Part shown: positions 266 through 24,149 of the stretch, piece by piece
Layout: each line of letters starts with the position of its first letter
Numbering within the stretch: the first letter of the stretch is position 1
From: Candidatus Methylomirabilis oxygeniifera
GTDB taxonomy: Bacteria > Methylomirabilota > Methylomirabilia > Methylomirabilales > Methylomirabilaceae
Direction: 5' to 3'
NCBI GenBank assembly: GCA_000091165.1
Contig: FP565575.1
Coordinates: 210,001-242,000 of the forward strand
Length of the DNA stretch: 32,000 nucleotides
Position numbers and translations under genes: made by a program
Notes under the pieces: generated by a model
Told to the model about the DNA's origin: nothing
Seen by the model: the letters and a program-made list of their open reading frames with translations, nothing else
Databases searched by the model: none

Positions 266-333
266 CTCCCGTGTCCAGCAACCCAGGTTATGGGACATGG
301 TCAGCTCTCGGAGGGAGAGAGAAGGACAAAGCA

Positions 334-2941: not shown

Positions 2942-2957
2942 GGCGGTGATGATAGAG

Positions 2958-3185
2958 GATACCCCTCTTTGGAAAAGAGGGGCGAGGGGAGATGTTCTCA
3001 ATCGATGTCGATTCATGATTGGAGATCACTGCTGTTTACAATATTCACACTACATCCTTACGGGAACAAGGGAAGTAATGGATTGTATTGATCACTGTAA
3101 AATCCCCCTCCATCCCCCTTTCTCAAAGGGGGAAAATATGGCGAATACCCCTCTTTGGAAAAGAGGGGCGAGGGGAGATTTTCTT
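2958..3185. repeat. Cluster of three G/C hairpin repeats (two of subfamily B, one of subfamily A)
   Basis: Subfamily B: acccctctttggaaaagaggggcgaggggagatNttc at 2961-2997 and 3147-3184, nearly identical, with a third copy at 8054-8094. Subfamily A: atccccctccatccccctttctcaaagggggaaaat at 3101-3137. Confidence 0.85.
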
Positions 3186-5678: not shown

Positions 5679-5698
5679 CTTGCGGAAGATATTTTTTC

Positions 5699-5987
5699 GG
5701 TTCTTCCGGAATTAGCGTGGGTGAACCTGTCTGCGTACAGATACGCACACCCTTTCTCCTCTTTGCCAAACATAAACCCCCCTAACCCCCCTTTTTCAAG
5801 GGGGGGACCGCATCTCCCCCTTTAGCAGGGAAGGGGGGACCGCATGCTTGCACTTCTACTTCTTTTCCCCCTTTCGTAAAGGGGGATACAAGGGGGTTTT
5901 TCTCCCCATGGCCCCTTTGGTAAAGGGGGTGTCCCCGTGTCCAGCGCTGAAGACTCGGCCCCTGCCCACGCTAATTCCGGAAGATCC
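5699..5987 (-). mobile_element. MITE-like non-autonomous element, copy 1 (289 bp)
   Basis: 23-bp TIRs ggttcttccggaattagcgtggg (5699-5721) and cccacgctaattccggaagatcc (5965-5987) match at 22/23 positions. Flanked by the direct repeat ATTTTTTC (5691-5698 and 5988-5995). No ORF. The interior is built from G/C hairpin modules (5786-5806, 5867-5885, 5912-5929). Confidence 0.7.
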
Positions 5988-6115
5988 ATTTTTTCTTGAC
6001 CAAAGCGAGATCTTTCTACATCGCCAAAATGAGCGCTTTCGTGATGGCATGTATAACTCATAAGAGGGTAATACGGAAGGTGGGACTTGGCCTGCAAAGC
6101 GAGGCGGTGAGATCG

Positions 6116-6819: not shown

Positions 6820-7262
6820 GATCGCTCCTCAGTAGGGCTGGCAACCTATGACTATGTATACCACAAGTGCCATGCGGAGGCGATGTGATTTCTGGAGGGC
6901 GGACGCGGGGTCGCGTGGCACGCCGGCATGGAGCAGGGGTGGCTGCCGACCGCTGTGAGGGCGACGTTGCGTTTATCGCGGGTCCGCGTCCGGTTGACGA
7001 GGTGATACTGCCGGTCCACTCCGACATACAGCCGCGGGATGGACAGGCTTTCGAGAGGGAGCCGCCCCCGGTGTATCCACACCCCAAGCTACCGCCTTGG
7101 GTTCATTCCCTGCAGTTCGTCATGCCGGATCGTTACCCCGGCGCACGCCGGGGTCCAGTGTCAGGATCAATGGAAGCTCGAATTGATCGAGAAGACGAAT
7201 CCACAGTGGCGGGACCTATATGCGGAACTCTTGTAAAGCTCTGGCTATTCCCCTACGTCGTG

Positions 7263-7947: not shown

Positions 7948-8020
7948 ATCCAAAGATAGGCAGATAGGTAATCAATCAGTGAGAGGGGGGAAAATCATTG
8001 AATCCACTGGGGGTTCATTA

Positions 8021-8094
8021 TAAAATCCCCCTTTTTCAAAGGGGGAAACGGTTAGTCCCCCTCTTTGGAAAAGAGGGGTTAGGGGAGATTTTCC
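8021..8094. repeat. Two adjacent G/C hairpin repeats (subfamily A at 8027-8045, subfamily B at 8057-8078)
   Basis: ccccctttttcaaaggggg and cccctctttggaaaagagggg, followed by ttaggggagattttcc. The subfamily B copy matches 2961-2997 and 3147-3184. Confidence 0.85.
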
Positions 8095-8129
8095 ACCCGT
8101 AACTGAATGGTTACGTAGATAGGTCACAC

Positions 8130-8192: not shown

Positions 8193-8236
8193 ATACCCCC
8201 TTTAATCCCCCTTTGCCAAAGGGGGAGGGGGGGGGA
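8193..8236. repeat. G/C hairpin repeat (subfamily A) followed by a G9 tract
   Basis: ccccctttgccaaaggggg at 8207-8225. Homopolymer G9 at 8227-8235. Confidence 0.8.
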
Positions 8237-8366
8237 GATGGGGAATGACCACATACACCGGATAGACGAAATGTCGAACGGCTTGGGCGAGGGGGTTGGA
8301 ATGTATCTGATCGGTTGCGGTACAACGCGAAAGCGGGGAGCAGGATCCCCGAGTATCCGGGGGAGG

Positions 8367-11171: not shown

Positions 11172-11514
11172 GGTTCTTCCGGACTGAGCGCGGGTAGAGG
11201 CCGAGTCTTCAGCGCTGGACACGGGGACACCCCCCTTGAAAAAGGGGGCGAGGGTTTTATCTTGATGGAGGACAACATTGTACTTCGGAGGGTCGTGAGA
11301 AGGACCAAGGAGAAACCCCCTTCGATCCCCCTTTGCCAAAGGGGGAGAAAAGGTAGATGTACAAGCGTGGTACCCCCCTTTGGAAAAGGGGGGCAGAGGG
11401 GGGTTTCTTTTTGCCAAAGGGGGAGACAAGGTCAGGGGAGGTGACTTCCGATTCCTCCCTGCCTGTGCGTATCTGTGCGCAGACGGGTTTACCCACGCTT
11501 ATTCCGGAAGAACC
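11172..11514 (+). mobile_element. MITE-like non-autonomous element, copy 2 (343 bp), inverted relative to copy 1
   Basis: TIRs ggttcttccggactgagcgcggg (11172-11194) and cccacgcttattccggaagaacc (11492-11514) match at 20/23. Flanks agcgatgg and agtcatgg match at 6/8. The interior is colinear with the reverse complement of 5699-5987, including a perfect 36-mer (11199-11234 = revcomp of 5925-5960), and has an extra 51 nt. Confidence 0.7.
11261..11311 (+). pseudogene. 51-nt relic of a DUF559 gene inside MITE copy 2
   Basis: cttgatggaggacaacattgtacttcggagggtcgtgagaaggaccaagga aligns with 44-94 of the DUF559 CDS (about 44/51 identical). It is followed directly by module Y, which in the intact copy lies about 115 nt further on. 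Confidence 0.65.
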
Positions 11515-11552
11515 AGTCATGGAAAAGGAACTGCACAACCGTCCGTTCGGCC

Positions 11553-11595
11553 TGAGCTTGTCGAAGGCTGCTCCGCGCATGGTTCGACAGGCTCA
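11553..11595. repeat. Hairpin repeat of the LSLSKG/FDKLR type
   Basis: tgagcttgtcgaa (11553-11565) pairs with ttcgacaggctca (11583-11595) with one mismatch. Pseudo-peptides of this kind (SLSK... / FDKLRPNG) are common repeat translations in environmental genomes. Confidence 0.6.
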
Positions 11596-11634
11596 CCATG
11601 AGCAGAGCAAGGACATTTACGTCGTGCATTACTT

Positions 11635-15294: not shown

Positions 15295-16562
15295 TGTACG
15301 CGATTGAGGTCCATGACCTTTCTAAGGTCTATCGGCTCTACTCGAATCCGAAGGACCGCCTCAAGGAGTATCTCTTCCGGGGCAGGCGGACCTACCACCA
15401 GGCGTTCTGGGCCTTAAGAAATGTGAGTTTCAGGGTTGCACATGGCTCGACGTTAGGCCTTGTCGGCGACAACGGGGCCGGTAAGAGCACGCTGCTTCAA
15501 CTGGTGGCCGGCACTCTGCGGCCCACATCCGGCAGCGTGACGTTGAATGGCCGCGTCTCCACAATCCTGGAACTGGGTGCGGGGTTCAATCCGGAGTTTA
15601 CAGGTCGAGAGAATGTCTTTATGACAGGATCAATCATGGGGATACCACAGCAGGAAATGGAGCGGCGATTCCCGGAGATTGCCGCGTTTGCAGAAATTGG
15701 GGATTTTATTGAACGGCCTGTAAAGCTGTATTCCAGCGGCATGTACGTCCGCCTTGCGTTTGCTGTTGCGACCAGCGTGGACCCCGACATACTGATAGTC
15801 GATGAGGCCCTCTCTGTCGGGGATCAGTACTTTCAGAAGCGCTGCATAGATCGGATCGAAGGTTTCAGGAAGTCCGGTAAGAGCATACTGTTTTGCTCTC
15901 ACAATCTGTACCAGATCAGATTGATCTGCGACGAGGCCGTCTGGCTGAAGGATGGTGAGGTCGCCATGGCCGGAGAGGCCTCCAGGGTTATTGGAGCGTA
16001 TCAGAACTATATGCGGGAGAGGGAGATGCCAAAGGCTTCTCCCGCCACGGTTGAGGTCGGACCAAGGACCTTTCCCTGGGTCTCAGGTGTACGGCTGAGC
16101 TGTGGTGACGAGGAGGGGGATCGGGATGAGTTCGTAACAGGAGACGAACTGGTCGTGACGGTCGCGTACGAGGTGCCTGATCCGCCAAGGGTTGTTCATG
16201 TGGGTGTCGTCATTGTCAGGAACGATTCGGTGCAGGTATTCGGCACCGGCACCCACGTCTCAGGCGTCAAACTCCCACCCCGTTCGAGCAGTTCAAGGAT
16301 ACGTTTTCCGGCACTTCCGCTTCTATCCGGTCAATACGCGATTTCAGTGTTCCTTCTTGATGAGCACGGAATTCACGTCTACGATGAAAAGGAGCGCGAG
16401 TTCAAGTTCCAGGTGACTCAGAATGTGCAGGCCCTGGGTCTGAGCTTCCTGGAACACCGTTGGGACGTGGAGGTCCCGCATGAGGCGAACGGCAAGTGGG
16501 GCTCTGACGATCACGCCGGCAACAAGCAGATAAACAATGCGTTAGGCATCGTCAAAGGATAA
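15294..16562 (+). CDS. wzt: Polysaccharide ABC transporter ATP-binding protein with a C-terminal Wzt_C-like glycan-binding domain
   Basis: Walker A GDNGAGKST, signature YSSGMYVRLAFA, Walker B ILIVDEALSVGD. A C-terminal extension of about 170 aa shows a beta-sandwich pattern (FVTGDELVVTVAY...LLSGQYAISVFL). Its start overlaps the wzm stop by 1 nt (TGATG). Confidence 0.85.
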   Translation: MYAIEVHDLSKVYRLYSNPKDRLKEYLFRGRRTYHQAFWALRNVSFRVAHGSTLGLVGDNGAGKSTLLQLVAGTLRPTSGSVTLNGRVSTILELGAGFNPEFTGRENVFMTGSIMGIPQQEMERRFPEIAAFAEIGDFIERPVKLYSSGMYVRLAFAVATSVDPDILIVDEALSVGDQYFQKRCIDRIEGFRKSGKSILFCSHNLYQIRLICDEAVWLKDGEVAMAGEASRVIGAYQNYMREREMPKASPATVEVGPRTFPWVSGVRLSCGDEEGDRDEFVTGDELVVTVAYEVPDPPRVVHVGVVIVRNDSVQVFGTGTHVSGVKLPPRSSSSRIRFPALPLLSGQYAISVFLLDEHGIHVYDEKEREFKFQVTQNVQALGLSFLEHRWDVEVPHEANGKWGSDDHAGNKQINNALGIVKG

Positions 16563-16593
16563 CATGCACATATTCATGATCCGAAAAATGCAC

Positions 16594-16638
16594 AAATCCC
16601 CTCTTTCCCCCTTTTGAAAGGAGGATGAAGGGGGTTTG
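16594..16638. repeat. Degenerate G/C hairpin repeat after wzt
   Basis: aaatcccctctttcccccttttgaaaggaggatgaagggggttt. Confidence 0.6.
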
Positions 16639-16643
16639 TTGCT

Positions 16644-17726
16644 TTGGTAGATATAAATTCATTGTTGACGCCTCCTTACTCTGAGGGAGCGTGTTCATCT
16701 GGGGGCGGTGAGGTGTGCGTATACAAAGATCCTGCCGGACGCTTTACTATCCGCCCATATCAGGCCGGTGACGAACTCCGGATCCTCGATCTGTTCCGGC
16801 GCGTGTTCGGGGTAGAGCGATCGTGTGAGCACTGGCGCTGGAAATTTCGGGATAATCCCGCCGGTTCATACGTGCTGCGCGTGGCTGAGACGCAGGACGG
16901 TAGGCTTGTGGGGCAATATGCCCTATTGCCCGTCCGAACCCGATGGGGTCATGAGACGGTCACCTTTATCCAGGTCATCGATGTGATGGTCGATCCGCAC
17001 TATCGGATGGGATTAAAGCGTCCCGGGCTGTTTTCGGTTCTGGCCGAACAGTCGGTGATGGCATTCCTCCGCGGCGGGCTGGCGTTGATCGGCTACGGGT
17101 TCCCGACACCGGAGGCGTTGCGGATCGGCGCGCGCGCTGTCGGGTATCATCCCCTGCATCCGATTCAGCGGCTGGTAAAAGACCTCACCGTTGCGAGCAG
17201 GCCCCGCTCCTTCCGGCCATGGTCCGTGAGGTGCGAGAGAGTTGCGCGTTTTGGAGATAATGTAGAGATGTTGTGGCGGCGATGCGCCTCCTCCTTTGAC
17301 ATTGCGGTCATACGTGATGCGGAATATCTGAACTGGCGATATGCCGACTGCCCTGATGTTGCATACACGATGGTTGCGGCCGGACAGCCGTGGAGCGGTA
17401 TCCTGTCAGGGGCGGCAGTTCTCCGAATGGGATGGGCGGATCAGCCGATTGCGTGTCTGGCGGATTGGCTTGTTCCGCCTGACGCGACGTCGACGGCCGA
17501 GAGACTGCTGGCTCATTGTGAGGCGTTGGCTCGAGAGGCCGGCATGGAACGGCTCAGCGCCTGGTTTCCTCAACATGCCTGGCCGTATCGCTTTCTCTGC
17601 GAGCATGGGTATCGGGTGGAGCCCACCATATACCACCTGGTGGCCTTGGCCACCGATCCCATGGCCGACCTCGAGCGGGTCAGGGATCGCTGGTACTACA
17701 CAATGGGAGATTCGGATATCTTTTGA
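16644..17726 (+). CDS. Two-domain GNAT-family acyltransferase (start uncertain)
   Basis: IRPYQAGDELRILDLFRRVFG...EHWRWKFRDNP...GRLVGQYALLP...IDVMVDPHYR is the GNAT core pattern. A second C-terminal half of similar size follows. The track start is TTG 16644. Confidence 0.6.
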   Translation: MVDINSLLTPPYSEGACSSGGGEVCVYKDPAGRFTIRPYQAGDELRILDLFRRVFGVERSCEHWRWKFRDNPAGSYVLRVAETQDGRLVGQYALLPVRTRWGHETVTFIQVIDVMVDPHYRMGLKRPGLFSVLAEQSVMAFLRGGLALIGYGFPTPEALRIGARAVGYHPLHPIQRLVKDLTVASRPRSFRPWSVRCERVARFGDNVEMLWRRCASSFDIAVIRDAEYLNWRYADCPDVAYTMVAAGQPWSGILSGAAVLRMGWADQPIACLADWLVPPDATSTAERLLAHCEALAREAGMERLSAWFPQHAWPYRFLCEHGYRVEPTIYHLVALATDPMADLERVRDRWYYTMGDSDIF

Positions 17727-18428: not shown

Positions 18429-21400
18429 ATGCGAACCCTCCAGATCGTGCACGGCTTTCCGCCGGAGTCGGTCGCCGGGACCGAGACCTATTGCGAGACC
18501 TTAAGTAGGTATCTTCTGGCGCGAGGGCATCAGTGCGAGGTGCTGACCGGTTCCGGCCGGCGCACAGCAAAGGCTATCCTGGCTGTCGAAGTACAGAACG
18601 GGCTGCGGGTGGCCCGTTATCTGAGAACCGAGGGACAGGCTCAGACCTGGAGAGACGAATACGACCCTGAAGCCGAGGCGCTTATCCGAGATCTGCTCTC
18701 GCGTGACCGGCCGGACCTCGTGCACCTCCACCATTGGCACCGGCTGACCAACAACCTGGTGACGATCTGTACGGACCTGGGCATCCCCGTGGTGGTGACG
18801 TTGCACGATGTCTGGACTACTTGCCCACGTATCCATCGGATCCACCGGGAGGGAGTGTTCTGCAAAGAGCCCCTTCTGACCGCACCGTGTCTACACTGTG
18901 TCGAGCGAACTCAATGGCAGACGGATCAGGAGGTCGTTGCTGCACTGGCATTACGTCAACAGATGGTGGAGGCGGAGCTTTCGCTGGCCTCGGCTCTCAT
19001 CGTACCGTCAGAGGCGCATCGTTCATTGCTGCGTGAGCTGCTTGAGCTTCCGGAGAACCGCTTGATTGTTCTTCCGCATGGGAGTTCCCAGACCATCATC
19101 GCGCAGGATAGGCGGAAGCAACCATCAGCGTTCCGAAATCGACCGCTCCAGATCGGGCATTGGGGTTATTTCCTGTATCATAAAGGTACGCACCTGCTCC
19201 TGGAGGCGCTGCATCGTCTGGACGATCCGTCTGCCGTTCAGGTTCATTTGATCGGAACGGCCTTGGAGTCGGCATATGGGGAACGACTTCGCGATCTTGC
19301 GCGCGGGCTTTCGGTACAATTCCATGGCGCCTATCAGCCCGCCGACCTGCGGACGTTTGACCTTGATCTCGCCGTCTTCCCTTCCATCACCAGTGAATCC
19401 TATTCGTTTACCATTGATGAAGCGTTGTGGTTAGGGCTGCCGGTCCTCGTCTCGGACCGTGGTGCCCTCTCGGAGCGGATCGGGAAGGCAGGCCTGACCT
19501 TTCGGGCTGAGGATGCGGAGGATCTGGCCAGGTGCCTCCAGAGGATCCTGGACGCGCCGGAGGCGCTGGAGGCGATGCGCCTGGACATCCGGCTCGATAC
19601 GCTCTTATCAATGGAGGCCCATGTCGCCGGGTTGGAGAAGATCTATGAGGATGCTGTTTGCTTGAACGTTCCCCGATTAAAAACGTCCACCCCTTATTTG
19701 AAGTTGCTTGCCAATGCAAGGCAACAGATCCAGGAGCGCGACGCGGCGTTATCGGCAGCTCACGCCGAGCGCGACGCGGCGTTATCGGCAGCTCACGCTG
19801 AACTCGCACGAGCCGAGCAGGCCATACAGCAAAAGGACACAGACCTACAACAGGTTCAACGGACCGTCGAGCGTCTTGATGCAGAGGCCCGCCATTATCG
19901 TGAATCGCTGGAAGCTATTGTGTCATCCACGGTGTGGAAGCTCACGGCGCCGATCCGATGGTTGCGCCACCCCATCCGCGCCTTACCCGGCAAAGATCGA
20001 TTCGCGATAGATTTCGCACACCTGAAAGTCACGCTCAGAAAGGCCTATTTCTACCACCGAAAAATAGGTCTTCGGGCGACAGTGCGCAGAATTATCGTCG
20101 AGTTGCGCTCCCTTCACACCAAAGCCAGGGGTCCTGCTCTGTGCTCGTCTGAGTTATTGAATATCCACGATATCTACCCCATGCCCGGAGATATTTCCAG
20201 CCGGATTGCCGTCCACGCCCATGCGTACTACCCTGATTTGACAAAAGAACTCGCGTCGTATCTGAAGAATATGCCCTTCGCGTTTGACCTGTTCGTTTCG
20301 GTCTCGAATGATGAGGCGCGCGATGTCTGTCGTCAGGCATTTGCAGGGCTGCCACAGGCTCGTCGAGTCATTGTGGACGTTGTGGCAAATCGCGGCCGAG
20401 ACATTGCGCCGATGGTATGCCATTTTGGCGGTCGACTGGCAACATACGACTACATCTGCCATCTGCACACGAAGAAATCGATGTATGCGCAGGGAAAAAT
20501 GGATGGTTGGCTGGAGTATCTTCTGCGCCAGTTGATGGGAAGCGAGGATCAGGTTAGGCGGATTTTTTCCATGTTTCAAAGCGATCCAAGAGCCGGGATT
20601 ATTTACCCTCAAAATTACGAGTATCTGCCCTACTGGGGCAATACCTGGCTATCCAATAAAGCGCTGGGCGCCCAAATGTGCCGGCAGATGGGAATCACAG
20701 ATGTGCCGGAAGGGTATTTCGACTACCCTGCAGGGTCAATGTTCTGGGCTCGAAGCGAGGCCATTCGCAATCTTTTCTCGGCCGATATCAGACTGACGGA
20801 CTTTCCCGAAGAGGCTGGTCAGACGGATGGCTCACTGGCGCACTGCATTGAGCGGTTGCTGGTTCTTGTGGCCAGACACGCCGGATATAAGCCGTTTATT
20901 CTTGCCGATCCCTTGTCACCAAGCTGGTCAAAGTGGAGATTCGACCGCTATATGGCCAGAACGCGTGATTATGTTAAAACAGCGTTGGAAGCAAAAGATA
21001 TCAAAGTGATCGCCTTCGATATTTTCGATACACTGCTTGTTCGTCCGGTTCTCCATCCCGAAACCGCAAAGACGATCATTGGCCACCGCAACCGGGAAAT
21101 GGCCGGGACCGATTTTGCCGGGCTACGGGCGAAGGCGGAAGCACTGGCGCGCTCGCGTGTGGGGCGAGACGTGGGGCTTGAAGACATTTATGCTGAGTTT
21201 GCGTCACTGACAGGCAAGCAGGTCGATGAGGTTGGGTATCTCCGGACCCTGGAGGAGGAAATAGAACGACACCTGGTTTCTCCTCGACCTGAGTGTATAG
21301 ATATGTTCAACCATGCGATACGTAGCGGCAAACGTGTCGTTCTTGCGAGTGACATGTTTTTGCCTCGTCCTATTATTGAGAAAATGCTCTCGGAGAACGG

Positions 21401-22838: not shown

Positions 22839-24149
22839 ATGATGATACAATCTGCTCCCAAAGTCAGCGTGATTGTTCCGCTCTATAATCACGAGTTGTA
22901 TGTAGAGGAAGCACTCCGTTCCGTCCTGGAACAGTCCTTCCGGGATCTTGAGCTCGTCATCGTCAATGACGGCTCAACGGACGGCTCCGAGGCTGTTGTC
23001 GAACGCATCGATGATCGGCGCATACGATACTATAGGCAGGAGAATCGAGGGGCTCATGATGCGTTAAACAGGGGCATCGGCTTGGGCCCGGGGGGCTATA
23101 TTGCCATCCTCAACTCGGATGATCTCTATTACCCGGGACGAATTGCGGACGCGCTGAATATCTTGGAGCGTGATCCTGAGGTCTCAGCAGTCTTCACCTA
23201 CATTGAGCTGATTAACGCGCAGGGTGAGTCGTTAGGGGTCAAACGAGGCGCCGAGGACAACTGGTCCGGGCAAAGCGCTGAGAGCTCGTTTCGAGAGGAG
23301 CACGATACCGTACTTGATCTGCTGGCGGGGAACTTCCTTCATACCACCTCGAATCTGATCTGCCGAAGGGAGGTATTTGATCGAATCGGTCTCTTCGCGA
23401 ATCTCCGCTATACGCATGATTATGAGTTTTGCTTGCGACTCTGCGCGCGGTCCAGAGTCGCCATGATTCAGACCCCGTTGCTCAGGTATCGTTTCCATCA
23501 GTCCAACACGCTGAGCGAGGACGCCGCAGCCTCGCAGTTTGAAACGGGCATGGTTCTTGCGGATTTCTTCCTGACCTACGACGTGGGCAAGATGTTGGGA
23601 GAGGGACCACGGCGGTTTCAAAGGCTCGCTAAACTCTACAACTCGGTGCGAACGTATGAAACCGATCGGATCATCATACTGTTGCTTGTATTGGGCTTCA
23701 AGGGAAATTGGCAGGGCAAATTCTGGGAGGTATTTGCAGCCGATCAACAGAATCCGTTTAGAGAGGCCTGTATAGACAGTTTGACACACACACGCGACCT
23801 TTGTACCGTCAAGGAGACCCTCAGGTGGCAGCAGGGGCAGACGGAGCACTGGTGGGCAAGGGCGGAGGAATTACGGCACGCTCTCGAACAGCGCGAGATC
23901 GCCGTCGCGGAGTTCGATAAGCGGAGCCGAGAATCAGCGGAAGAGCTACGATGCGCGCTCGAACAGCGCGACACCGCTCTAGCGGAGCTTGAGGCGCGAA
24001 GTCGAGAACAGCATGCGCGCATCGAGGAGCTTCGGGCCAAAGAGGCCGTTCTCAACGAGGTTCTTGCGTCCCAGCAATGGAAGTGGCTCCAAAAACTGAA
24101 CAGGGTGCGCTCGGTCGTGCGCCGCGTGCGAGGCATAGGGCAGGCGTGA
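22839..24149 (+). CDS. Family 2 glycosyltransferase with a C-terminal coiled coil
   Basis: VSVIVPLYNHELYVEEALRSVLEQSF..LVIVNDGSTDGS...ILNSDDLY are GT2 motifs. The last 100 aa or so are a charged helical repeat. ATG at 22839 (TTG at 22833 is also possible). Confidence 0.85.
   Translation: MMIQSAPKVSVIVPLYNHELYVEEALRSVLEQSFRDLELVIVNDGSTDGSEAVVERIDDRRIRYYRQENRGAHDALNRGIGLGPGGYIAILNSDDLYYPGRIADALNILERDPEVSAVFTYIELINAQGESLGVKRGAEDNWSGQSAESSFREEHDTVLDLLAGNFLHTTSNLICRREVFDRIGLFANLRYTHDYEFCLRLCARSRVAMIQTPLLRYRFHQSNTLSEDAAASQFETGMVLADFFLTYDVGKMLGEGPRRFQRLAKLYNSVRTYETDRIIILLLVLGFKGNWQGKFWEVFAADQQNPFREACIDSLTHTRDLCTVKETLRWQQGQTEHWWARAEELRHALEQREIAVAEFDKRSRESAEELRCALEQRDTALAELEARSREQHARIEELRAKEAVLNEVLASQQWKWLQKLNRVRSVVRRVRGIGQA
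23862..24011 (+). repeat. Imperfect tandem 75-bp (25-aa) repeat in the coiled-coil tail
   Basis: AEELRHALEQREIAVAEFDKRSRES (23862-23936) and AEELRCALEQRDTALAELEARSREQ (23937-24011). Confidence 0.85.

Follow-up and report, generated by a model that had tools for sequence, protein, structure and literature searches.

In this study, a 32,000-nt stretch of the genome of Candidatus Methylomirabilis oxygeniifera (contig FP565575.1, positions 210,001 to 242,000 of the forward strand; hereafter the window) was analyzed with respect to two copies of a miniature inverted-repeat transposable element (MITE) and a neighbouring gene of the DUF559 family. The second of these copies (copy 2, positions 11172–11514) is best explained as an internally deleted member of a non-autonomous, ISL3-type family, whose full form (approximately 490–650 bp) carries a single gene for a 116-aa DUF559 protein; we give this reading a probability of about 0.78. 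The full form would be built of an ISL3-type terminal repeat, subterminal sequence originating from the 3′ end of an ISL3 transposase gene, at least one hairpin module, the DUF559 open reading frame (ORF), the inverse hairpin module(s) and a second terminal repeat, and it contains no transposase. In the terminology of ISfinder, such an element is a mobile insertion cassette (MIC), and ORF-less derivatives of it are MITEs. A preliminary description of the window had postulated a DUF559-bearing parent, with the DUF559 gene as cargo of an element bounded by terminal inverted repeats, and this proposal was borne out, since the left end of such an element was found and whole elements with 8-bp target duplications exist in several unrelated bacterial lineages. 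The anatomy of the element, its left repeat, the 8-bp duplications, the transposition of whole elements and the ISL3 origin of the ends are all documented by sequence comparison, as are purifying selection on the ORF and the derivation of copy 2 by two internal deletions.

The full DUF559 element is situated at the left edge of the window. The window is matched at 99.98% identity by two further sequences of Candidatus Methylomirabilis oxyfera (NC10 phylum), L001 (contig_6 in the European Nucleotide Archive) and L002 (GCA_009026205.1), and the former, which is antiparallel to the window, adds 9 kb beyond window position 1. Extension to the left, which the preliminary description had suggested as a check, revealed an inverted terminal repeat approximately 145 bp upstream of the DUF559 start. 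On the minus strand of L001, positions 11806–11778 read GGCTCTTCCGAAATGAGCATGGGTAGAG and are followed by the same 34-nt block, CCGAGTCTTCAGCGCTGGACACGGGGACACCCCC, as in copies 1 and 2; from 11806 downwards, in the orientation of the window, the left terminal repeat and this subterminal block together read GGCTCTTCCGAAATGAGCATGGGTAGAGACCGAGTCTTCAGCGCTGGACACGGGGACACCCCC. Two hairpin modules separate the block from the DUF559 ORF, whose 116 codons start with TTG at about −149 in window numbering (L001 11662), so that its 3′ two-thirds (codons 51–116, stop codon at 200–202) occupy positions 1–202 of the plus strand. The deduced protein (MILPYNKDLKGY...IWQHL) matches PF04480 (E = 5e-35, residues 8–116), NCBIfam PRK09767 and PDB 3HRL (E = 5e-16), contains the core motifs VDFYC...IELDGGQH and thereby belongs to the DUF559/Vsr-like PD-(D/E)xK nucleases, with a predicted endonuclease activity.

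Downstream of the gene, on the same strand, there are module Y (213–265), a downstream-type hairpin with its stem at 227–247 and a mirror-repeat pyrimidine tail 5′ of the stem, an inner inverted-repeat block CCCGTGTCCAGCAACCCAGGTTATGGGACATGGTCAGC (268–305), the inverse of which (GCTGGACACGGGG) lies in the left subterminal region and which also bounds the loci L129 and L130, and a degenerate right terminal inverted repeat with one inserted base (335–358). The presence of the latter had been anticipated as a repeat-like end at 334–358; its positions 335–354 fit the pattern CCCACNNNNNTTCCGGAAGA exactly, and the window holds only four sites that fit this pattern with at most one mismatch, the other three being MITE ends (0 sites in 100 shuffles). 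The full element spans approximately −292 to 358, i.e. roughly 650 bp. An 8-bp duplication, also looked for around it, was recovered only in part: there is no clean one, and the sole candidate pairs CTAACGCT on the left with ATAACGCT at 363–370 (7/8 matches, offset by 4 nt). A 135-nt repeat containing a hairpin module and a TTGACG box occurs at window positions 16551–16683 and at L001 11806–11940 (91% identity); one copy adjoins the full element's left terminal repeat, and the other is located upstream of a gene starting near 16700.

Copy 1 (5699–5987, minus strand) is 289 bp long and consists of hairpin modules without any DUF559 sequence. Its 23-nt termini are GGTTCTTCCGGAATTAGCGTGGG and GGATCTTCCGGAATTAGCGTGGG, and it is flanked by a perfect 8-bp target duplication, ATTTTTTC, at 5691–5698 and 5988–5995. 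As stated previously, copy 2 (343 bp) is colinear with the reverse complement of copy 1, which was seen both in the repeat search and in the MAFFT alignment (mean column identity of 79%, the ends aligning much better), and it has its own terminal inverted repeats, 22/25 complementary (formerly given as 20/23), as well as 8-bp flanks, AGCGATGG and AGTCATGG, that agree at 6 of 8 positions. Both copies are shorter than 600 bp, have terminal inverted repeats and a target duplication, lack a transposase ORF and belong to a multi-copy family, as is usual for MITEs.

Copy 2 is described here along the plus strand. Its left terminal inverted repeat, GGTTCTTCCGGACTGAGCGCGGGTA (11172–11196), is homologous to the right end of ISL3 elements and keeps a remnant of the C-terminal codons of the transposase. 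It is followed by the subterminal region (11197–11230), with the 34-nt core common to copy 1, copy 2 and the full element at approximately 11200–11233 (overlapping the next part), by an upstream-type hairpin module, H1, with a remnant of the leader (11231–11260) and the TTGAT microhomology at its end, and by the DUF559 gene fragment (11261–11306). The remnant of the post-stop spacer and module Y come next (11307–11364; downstream-type hairpin module, stem at 11326–11346), and then further hairpin modules (11368–11432), namely H2, with its stem at 11373–11393 and the tail GGGGGGTTT, and a partial module at 11410–11432. The right subterminal block TGTGCGTATCTGTGCGCAGACGGGTTTA and the right terminal inverted repeat (11490–11514) close the element; this whole region (11464–11514) is 92% complementary to 5699–5749 of copy 1, and the same block stands after the DUF559 gene in L127, a locus from a JGI metagenome. 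Directly after copy 2, another inverted-repeat unit is present at 11527–11603, which translates as ...PFGLSLSK...VRQAHHE; similar repeats with spurious ORFs occur in other genomes.

The link between copy 2 and the DUF559 gene had been based on an extra 51 nt (11261–11311) with about 86% identity to the gene. This value is correct for the whole segment (44/51), but the last 5 nt represent the post-stop spacer, and the gene fragment itself aligns with positions 44–89 at 42 of 46 nucleotides (91%). The match withstands a significance test, with a blastn E-value of 1.2e-13 when both strands of the whole window are searched. Module Y does follow at once, as it does after the intact gene; 11312–11364 match 214–265 at 45/53 positions (E = 6e-11 in the same search). 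The codons preserved in the fragment are LDGGQH..EGRE.D and include the ELDG catalytic-motif region.

The junctions within copy 2 reveal how it was formed. After the upstream module copy 2 reads TTTTATCTTGAT followed by GGAGGAC, while the intact gene reads TTTCTCATTGAT followed by CCTGCC at its start and GAACTTGAT followed by GGAGGAC internally, which indicates that the first deletion joined two TTGAT sites, one in the start-codon region and one inside the gene. In the second deletion, ...GGACC (ending at 11306) was joined to the post-stop spacer AAGGAGAAACCCCC, which resembles the post-stop spacer of L128. In L127, module Y stands behind a 92%-identical DUF559 copy, and next to it comes TGTGCGTATCGGTACGCAGACCGGTTCACCCACGGAAAACCCGGAAGAACC, exactly a right end of the copy 2 type, in which the terminal repeat is GGTTCTTCCGGGTTTTCCGTGGG. 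The junctions and L127 together indicate that the parent of copy 2 combined the left end of the window's element with an L127-type right end. Hence the deletion series proposed in the preliminary description stands in the sense that copy 2, judging from its junctions, was derived from a DUF559-bearing parent by two internal deletions, the first of them at the TTGAT microhomology, but it is no simple deletion product of the element at the left edge of the window. The latter has another right end, another module order and an extra module, and is a sibling of the parent of copy 2, not the parent itself.

A scan of metagenomes yielded 80 loci with DUF559 relatives, 57–91% identical in protein, all of which match over almost the full protein length. 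Relatives that are only 57–66% identical reside in 490–617-bp elements with terminal repeats, perfect 8-bp duplications and DUF559 as the sole ORF. When the terminal repeat was scored at 17 defined positions (at most 4 mismatches, within 450 nt), correctly oriented repeats were found on 13/82 sides upstream and on 19/81 downstream of the gene, 11 loci having them on both; the wrong-orientation control yielded 3/163. The 8-bp duplications are ATAATAAA in L207 (526 bp), AAAATAAA in L186 and, after a 1-nt boundary shift, AAATAATG in L204, and L154 has one with 7/8 matches. Whole elements sharing 87–94% identity are inserted in unrelated flanks (L159/L197/L206 and L186/L192/L200/L204), and homology among these transposed copies stops at the terminal repeats. 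IS-type ends, a passenger gene, the lack of a transposase and movement as a unit, the attributes of a MIC, were recognized in L207, L154, L186, L204 and the full element of the window.

When the proteins were arranged in a neighbour-joining tree, the variants of the repeat (...AATTGTGTGG/...CTTTTCTGTGG, GGCTCATCGTGGAAGTGAGTGGG/GGCTCTTCGCGTAATCGAGTGGG and the Methylomirabilis type) follow the DUF559 clades, which implies that the gene and the ends have co-diverged. The DUF559 ORF is under purifying selection (dN/dS of 0.21–0.40 among copies of the Methylomirabilis clade). No ISL3 transposase was detected in any of the 83 DUF559 loci, the only match being L100, the source of the query. The plasmid collection contained only distant DUF559 homologues (at most 52% identical), and PADLOC returned only weak, domain-level matches (DpdF and a methyl-directed restriction endonuclease), so the DUF559 protein does not belong to a listed defence system.

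The origin of the ends was disclosed by two ISL3 transposase genes, those of L100 (Vicinamibacterales) and L212, which end with ...FHCGGLDLYPR and a stop codon inside GGTCCTTCTGGGTTTAGCGTGGGTAGAGGTCGAG. Both encode the domain PF01610, and PF14690 and PF13542 are present upstream in L212. The MITE left end, GGTTCTTCCGGACTGAGCGCGGGTAGAGGCCGAG, matches GGTCCTTCTGGGTTTAGCGTGGGTAGAGGTCGAG over 34 nt and still reads ...LGLYPR in the same frame, so that the terminal repeat plus 11 subterminal bases correspond to the 3′ end of ISL3 DDE transposase genes. An 8-bp target duplication is typical of ISL3 (ISfinder). On the basis of the homology with the transposase gene ends and of the 8-bp duplications, which are found in copy 1, L207, L186 and L204, the ends were assigned to the ISL3 family. 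In L100 (5625–6597) and L212 (2376–3507) the transposase is split over two overlapping frames, which could reflect either a programmed frameshift or decay. When proteins were searched with the C-terminus of ISL3, only short ORFs of 77–196 aa were retrieved, mostly C-terminal and many of them of about 167 aa, and no Methylomirabilis name stands among those listed.

Contigs were also scanned with the degenerate repeat pattern TCTTCCGRAMTNAGCRYGGG, which gave at least 120 matches, mostly due to chance or to Bradyrhizobium; the M. oxyfera genome is not among the matches listed. These do comprise the ISL3 copy L100 and cross-phylum MITEs of 180–310 bp, which are bounded by the identical 23-nt repeat and have unrelated interiors without DUF559. 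These MITEs were identified in metagenome-assembled genomes (MAGs) of Nitrospirae, Desulfomonile, Nitrospinota, Verrucomicrobiota and another Methylomirabilis, and one Verrucomicrobiota MAG harbours three identical copies on three contigs with differing flanks. Since MITEs devoid of DUF559 carry identical ends, the ends evidently work without this gene. Exact GGTTCTTCCGGAATTAGCGTGGG was observed in five phyla (L045, L014, L031, L041, L012, L095, L116, L117, L101, L040 and L102), and the interiors of the MITEs bounded by it are lineage-specific. This distribution suggests that one ISL3 subgroup has spread horizontally, and recently.

The second constant feature of the DUF559 loci are the hairpin modules, two of which were noted by eye in almost all of the 80 loci. 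The upstream module is located 10–20 nt before the start codon and has the form C5–6 TTT NNN AAA G5–6, a 3-nt spacer and G5–6 ATTT, and the inverse module, with the consensus AAAATCTCCCCTAACCCCTCTTTTCCAAAGAGGGG, directly follows the stop codon. Under a strict criterion (distance of at most 60 nt, expected orientation), modules were present upstream in 58/83 and downstream in 66/83 loci. Twelve modules were counted in the 32 kb of the window and 235 in 297 kb of DUF559 loci, as against 9 in 878 kb from 120 unrelated loci, so that they are approximately 40–80 times denser in the former two. In each informative variant the purine tail mirrors the purine arm (GAGGGG/GGGGAG, GGGGGA/AGGGGG and GGGAGG/GGAGGG), and the triads allowed in an antiparallel purine-motif triplex are found, on average, at 8.7 of 8.8 stem positions (6.0 in the direct-order control). 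The modules, of which module Y is one, therefore appear to bear the signature of H-DNA-type intramolecular triplexes, counted over three independent variants with kinship ignored. Three other explanations of this structure were discarded, the first two on inspection of the sequence. There is no U-run after the stem, as would be expected of an intrinsic terminator; the G-run lies about 14–15 nt from the start codon in most loci, which speaks against a Shine-Dalgarno element; and the G-tail, being the mirror image of the purine arm and not a copy of it, is no alternative Watson-Crick partner of the C-arm. The window had no match in Rfam, where the paired modules gave only spurious, sub-threshold matches to microRNAs.

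Within the window, modules occur at 213–265, 2952–2998, 3099–3184, 8024–8094, 8194–8244 and 11231–11432, and in L130–L209 they adjoin each DUF559 gene. Solo modules outside MITEs are those at 2952–3184, comprising a module at 2952–2998 and a paired module at 3099–3184 that folds as a single long hairpin (−25 kcal/mol, z = −5.3), and that at 8194–8244. A pair of the same modules is held by a member of a second, unrelated MITE family (7968–8114, 147 bp; ends GTAATCAATCAGTGAG and GTAACCATTCAGTTAC, flanks GCAGATAG and GTAGATAG with 7/8 matches), a paralogous copy of which is found at positions 1–160 of L130. In L129 (190–560), about seven module units are arranged in tandem, with a period of about 50 nt, directly upstream of the DUF559 gene. 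In L127 (1–116), L193 and L209, the loop of the upstream module is interrupted by ends of other elements, one of them being the CCCGTGTCCAGCAACCCAGGTTATGGG block that also forms the inner inverted repeat at window positions 268–305; hairpin modules may be insertion hot spots.

How the element moves has to be considered separately from what it carries. The preliminary description regarded DUF559 as possibly the nuclease that mobilizes the element, and this part of it did not hold, given that the ends match ISL3 transposase genes and that MITEs with identical repeats but without DUF559 occur in five phyla. With ISL3-type repeats, and two ISL3 transposase genes ending inside such repeats, a DDE transposase acting in trans is the likelier mobilizer. 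In the scenario that we favour, an ISL3 DDE transposase would recognize the terminal repeats and move the cassette, MITEs would arise from the cassette by internal deletion, and DUF559 would not be a transposase but a long-term selfish or helper cargo, equipped with structured modules of its own on its flanks and co-diverging with the element. It can be speculated that DUF559 is a structure- or mismatch-specific nicking enzyme for the flanking hairpin/mirror-repeat modules, although our confidence in any action of the protein on these modules is low.

That DUF559 itself cuts the terminal repeats and serves as the transposase is, in our view, highly improbable. It is the sole ORF of the element, it is under purifying selection and there is no transposase nearby. 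PD-(D/E)xK nucleases participate in transposition elsewhere; TnsA of Tn7, for instance, cuts the 5′ ends. TnsA is listed as a transposase (PMC3424549). Such a role is contradicted by the ends themselves, which agree with those of ISL3 even in the leftover C-terminal codons of the transposase, by the multiplication of MITEs with identical ends but neither DUF559 nor modules (L117, L101 and L040), and by the absence of such ends from most DUF559 relatives. Moreover, the protein is a 116-aa nuclease without a strand-transfer domain, and the 8-bp duplication is a signature of ISL3. Scarcely credible is the view that DUF559 is an ordinary host gene for very short patch (VSP) repair, placed by chance between two MITE ends, the 46-nt match being incidental. 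It can draw on the Caulobacter protein VsrA, for which a role in VSP repair has been proposed and which was shown to damage DNA without its partner methylase (PMC12907096). The significance of the fragment match (E = 1e-13), the recurrence, in at least four lineages, of this architecture together with duplications and the shortness of the contigs with close copies, typical of assembly breaks at repeats, exclude a chance juxtaposition and have already refuted it; a repair function as such is compatible with the data.

Several observations weigh against the favoured explanation. The preliminary description had named DUF559 copies without these ends as evidence against itself, and part of the copies do lack them: the same terminal repeats bracket the gene in L207, L186, L204 and others, but neither in L128–L130 nor in approximately 70% of the 80 relatives, which lack this repeat family. 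The proteins of L128–L130 are 84–91% identical; no clean ISL3 repeats are present in these loci, at the ends of which there is another long inverted repeat, GCTGAYCATGTCCCA...GCTGGACACGGGG, of about 75 nt in L129. In loci without terminal repeats, a generic search for other flanking inverted repeats gave only the hairpin modules, which means that the ISL3 frame is not essential to the DUF559 cassette. Furthermore, no M. oxyfera ISL3 transposase was found in the approximately 41 kb of the genome that were read, and the window's own full element, with a degenerate right repeat and no clean duplication, is now probably immobile.

These observations bear on an alternative in which DUF559 and the two inverted hairpin modules constitute an independent selfish cassette, of a homing type or resembling repetitive extragenic palindromic (REP) sequences with their associated tyrosine transposases (RAYTs), that repeatedly invades DNA with such modules, also that of ISL3 MITEs. 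The piece of DUF559 in copy 2 would then be a decayed invader instead of ancestral cargo, and ISL3 ends would be one of several vehicles. We consider this improbable, even though the modules flank DUF559 with or without terminal repeats, about half of the DUF559 tree is without terminal repeats, and modules are also found solo (2952–3184 and 8194–8244), in the unrelated MITE family (7968–8114) and in tandem arrays (L129). Likewise, distant DUF559 genes on Picosynechococcus and Deinococcus plasmids are flanked by similar modules and have no ISL3 ends, and Vsr-like homing endonucleases are known, namely the EDxHD family (cited in PMC9403480 and PMC3424549). What tells against it is that the repeat variants co-diverge with the DUF559 clades, which argues for stable linkage over repeated capture, that homology between transposed copies reaches exactly as far as the terminal repeats, next to which 8-bp duplications lie, and that no filled/empty pair differing by the cassette alone was seen. 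Homing endonuclease genes sit in an intron, an intein or a defined target site and show presence/absence polymorphism without duplications, whereas this gene is free-standing between hairpin modules, and its boundaries, where they can be made out, consist of terminal repeats accompanied by 8-bp duplications. As regards REP/RAYT systems, the gene belongs to PF04480 and is no Y1 transposase, so only the architecture is similar. A related, tentative idea, which we hold to be unlikely, is that DUF559 and its modules form a self-propagating, REPtron-like pair, in which the nuclease would recognize the folded module (hairpin or intramolecular triplex) and drive its spread or homing, ISL3 ends merely being an occasional vehicle. 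If true, this would provide a function for a very common small bacterial gene annotated as unknown and for widespread C-run/G-run intergenic repeats.

The reading of copy 2 as a deleted member of an ISL3-type, DUF559-carrying family may have a parallel in a second family of small nucleases. At approximately 7105–7236 of the window there is a remnant of a small GIY-YIG nuclease gene, in which the characteristic upstream hairpin is joined to the last 18 codons, i.e. decay of the same kind as in the DUF559 fragment. In a Nitrospirae MAG (L031, 1–383), a GIY-YIG ORF (PF01541) comes after an ISL3-type terminal repeat and continues up to the end of the contig, and on this ground GIY-YIG nucleases may ride the same kind of element. 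Unrelated to the element, long ORFs of the window contain in-frame tandem repeats at 19734–19799 (2 × 33 nt, 97%) and 23862–24008 (2 × 72–75 nt, 74% identity).

The DUF559 family is very large (in one search approximately 7,900 of 8,000 candidate proteins scored at E ≤ 1e-10), and the literature searched does not say what its small solitary members do. The existence of a DUF559 clade as the sole conserved cargo of ISL3-type elements explains multi-copy genes and assembly breaks, and many short spurious ORFs and genes annotated as 'endonuclease domain-containing protein' could be re-labelled as parts of elements. It also makes one ask why selection should maintain a nuclease in a transposon that can do without it. 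The conserved flanking modules, with a three-way covariation that fits a triplex, are a candidate substrate of DUF559, and the cassette, an ISL3 transposase and an active-site mutant of DUF559 would make up a concrete, testable system. The preliminary description was unaware of any report of a DUF559-bearing element with terminal inverted repeats, and our search agrees with it: in the literature searched there was neither such a description nor a joint mention of DUF559 and transposable elements, or of such endonucleases and MITEs. A transposase-less, ISL3-type element with DUF559 as its sole gene is thus new to that literature, while MICs and MITEs are already known.

MICs are an established category, exemplified by MIC231 of Bacillus cereus and the MICs with qnrD and qnrS2 (PMC3913671, PMC5444012, PMC6199540, PMC3129680). 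The DUF559 element shares with them IS-type terminal inverted repeats, a target duplication, one passenger, the lack of a transposase, a presumed mobilization in trans and ORF-less MITE relatives. It differs from them in its ISL3-type ends and in its passenger, which is a nuclease and not an adaptive gene, is conserved and co-diverges with the ends across lineages, and lies between its own inverted hairpin modules. With ISL3 insertion sequences and their MITEs it has in common the GG(Y)TCTTC... repeats of approximately 23–25 bp, the 8-bp duplications and the preserved last codons of the transposase (as in L100 and L212), but in contrast to ISL3 insertion sequences it encodes no transposase. 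In REPtrons, composed of REP sequences and a RAYT gene, and in the mosaics known as bacterial interspersed mosaic elements (BIMEs), a small gene is flanked by inverted copies of a hairpin repeat. The resemblance extends to the scattering of the repeat in intergenic regions, singly, in pairs and in arrays, whereas the gene of the element described here encodes a PD-(D/E)xK nuclease, not an HUH/Y1 transposase, and its repeat has a mirror-repeat tail. Finally, Vsr/DUF559 nucleases such as the EDxHD homing endonuclease I-Bth0305I (PDB 3R3P), 3HRL and Caulobacter VsrA have been assigned to repair or to intron/intein homing, and none of them is reported to be cargo of a transposable element with terminal repeats. 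With these nucleases the protein of the element described here shares the family PF04480 and the conserved VDF...ELDG region, and 3HRL is its closest solved relative by sequence (E = 5e-16).

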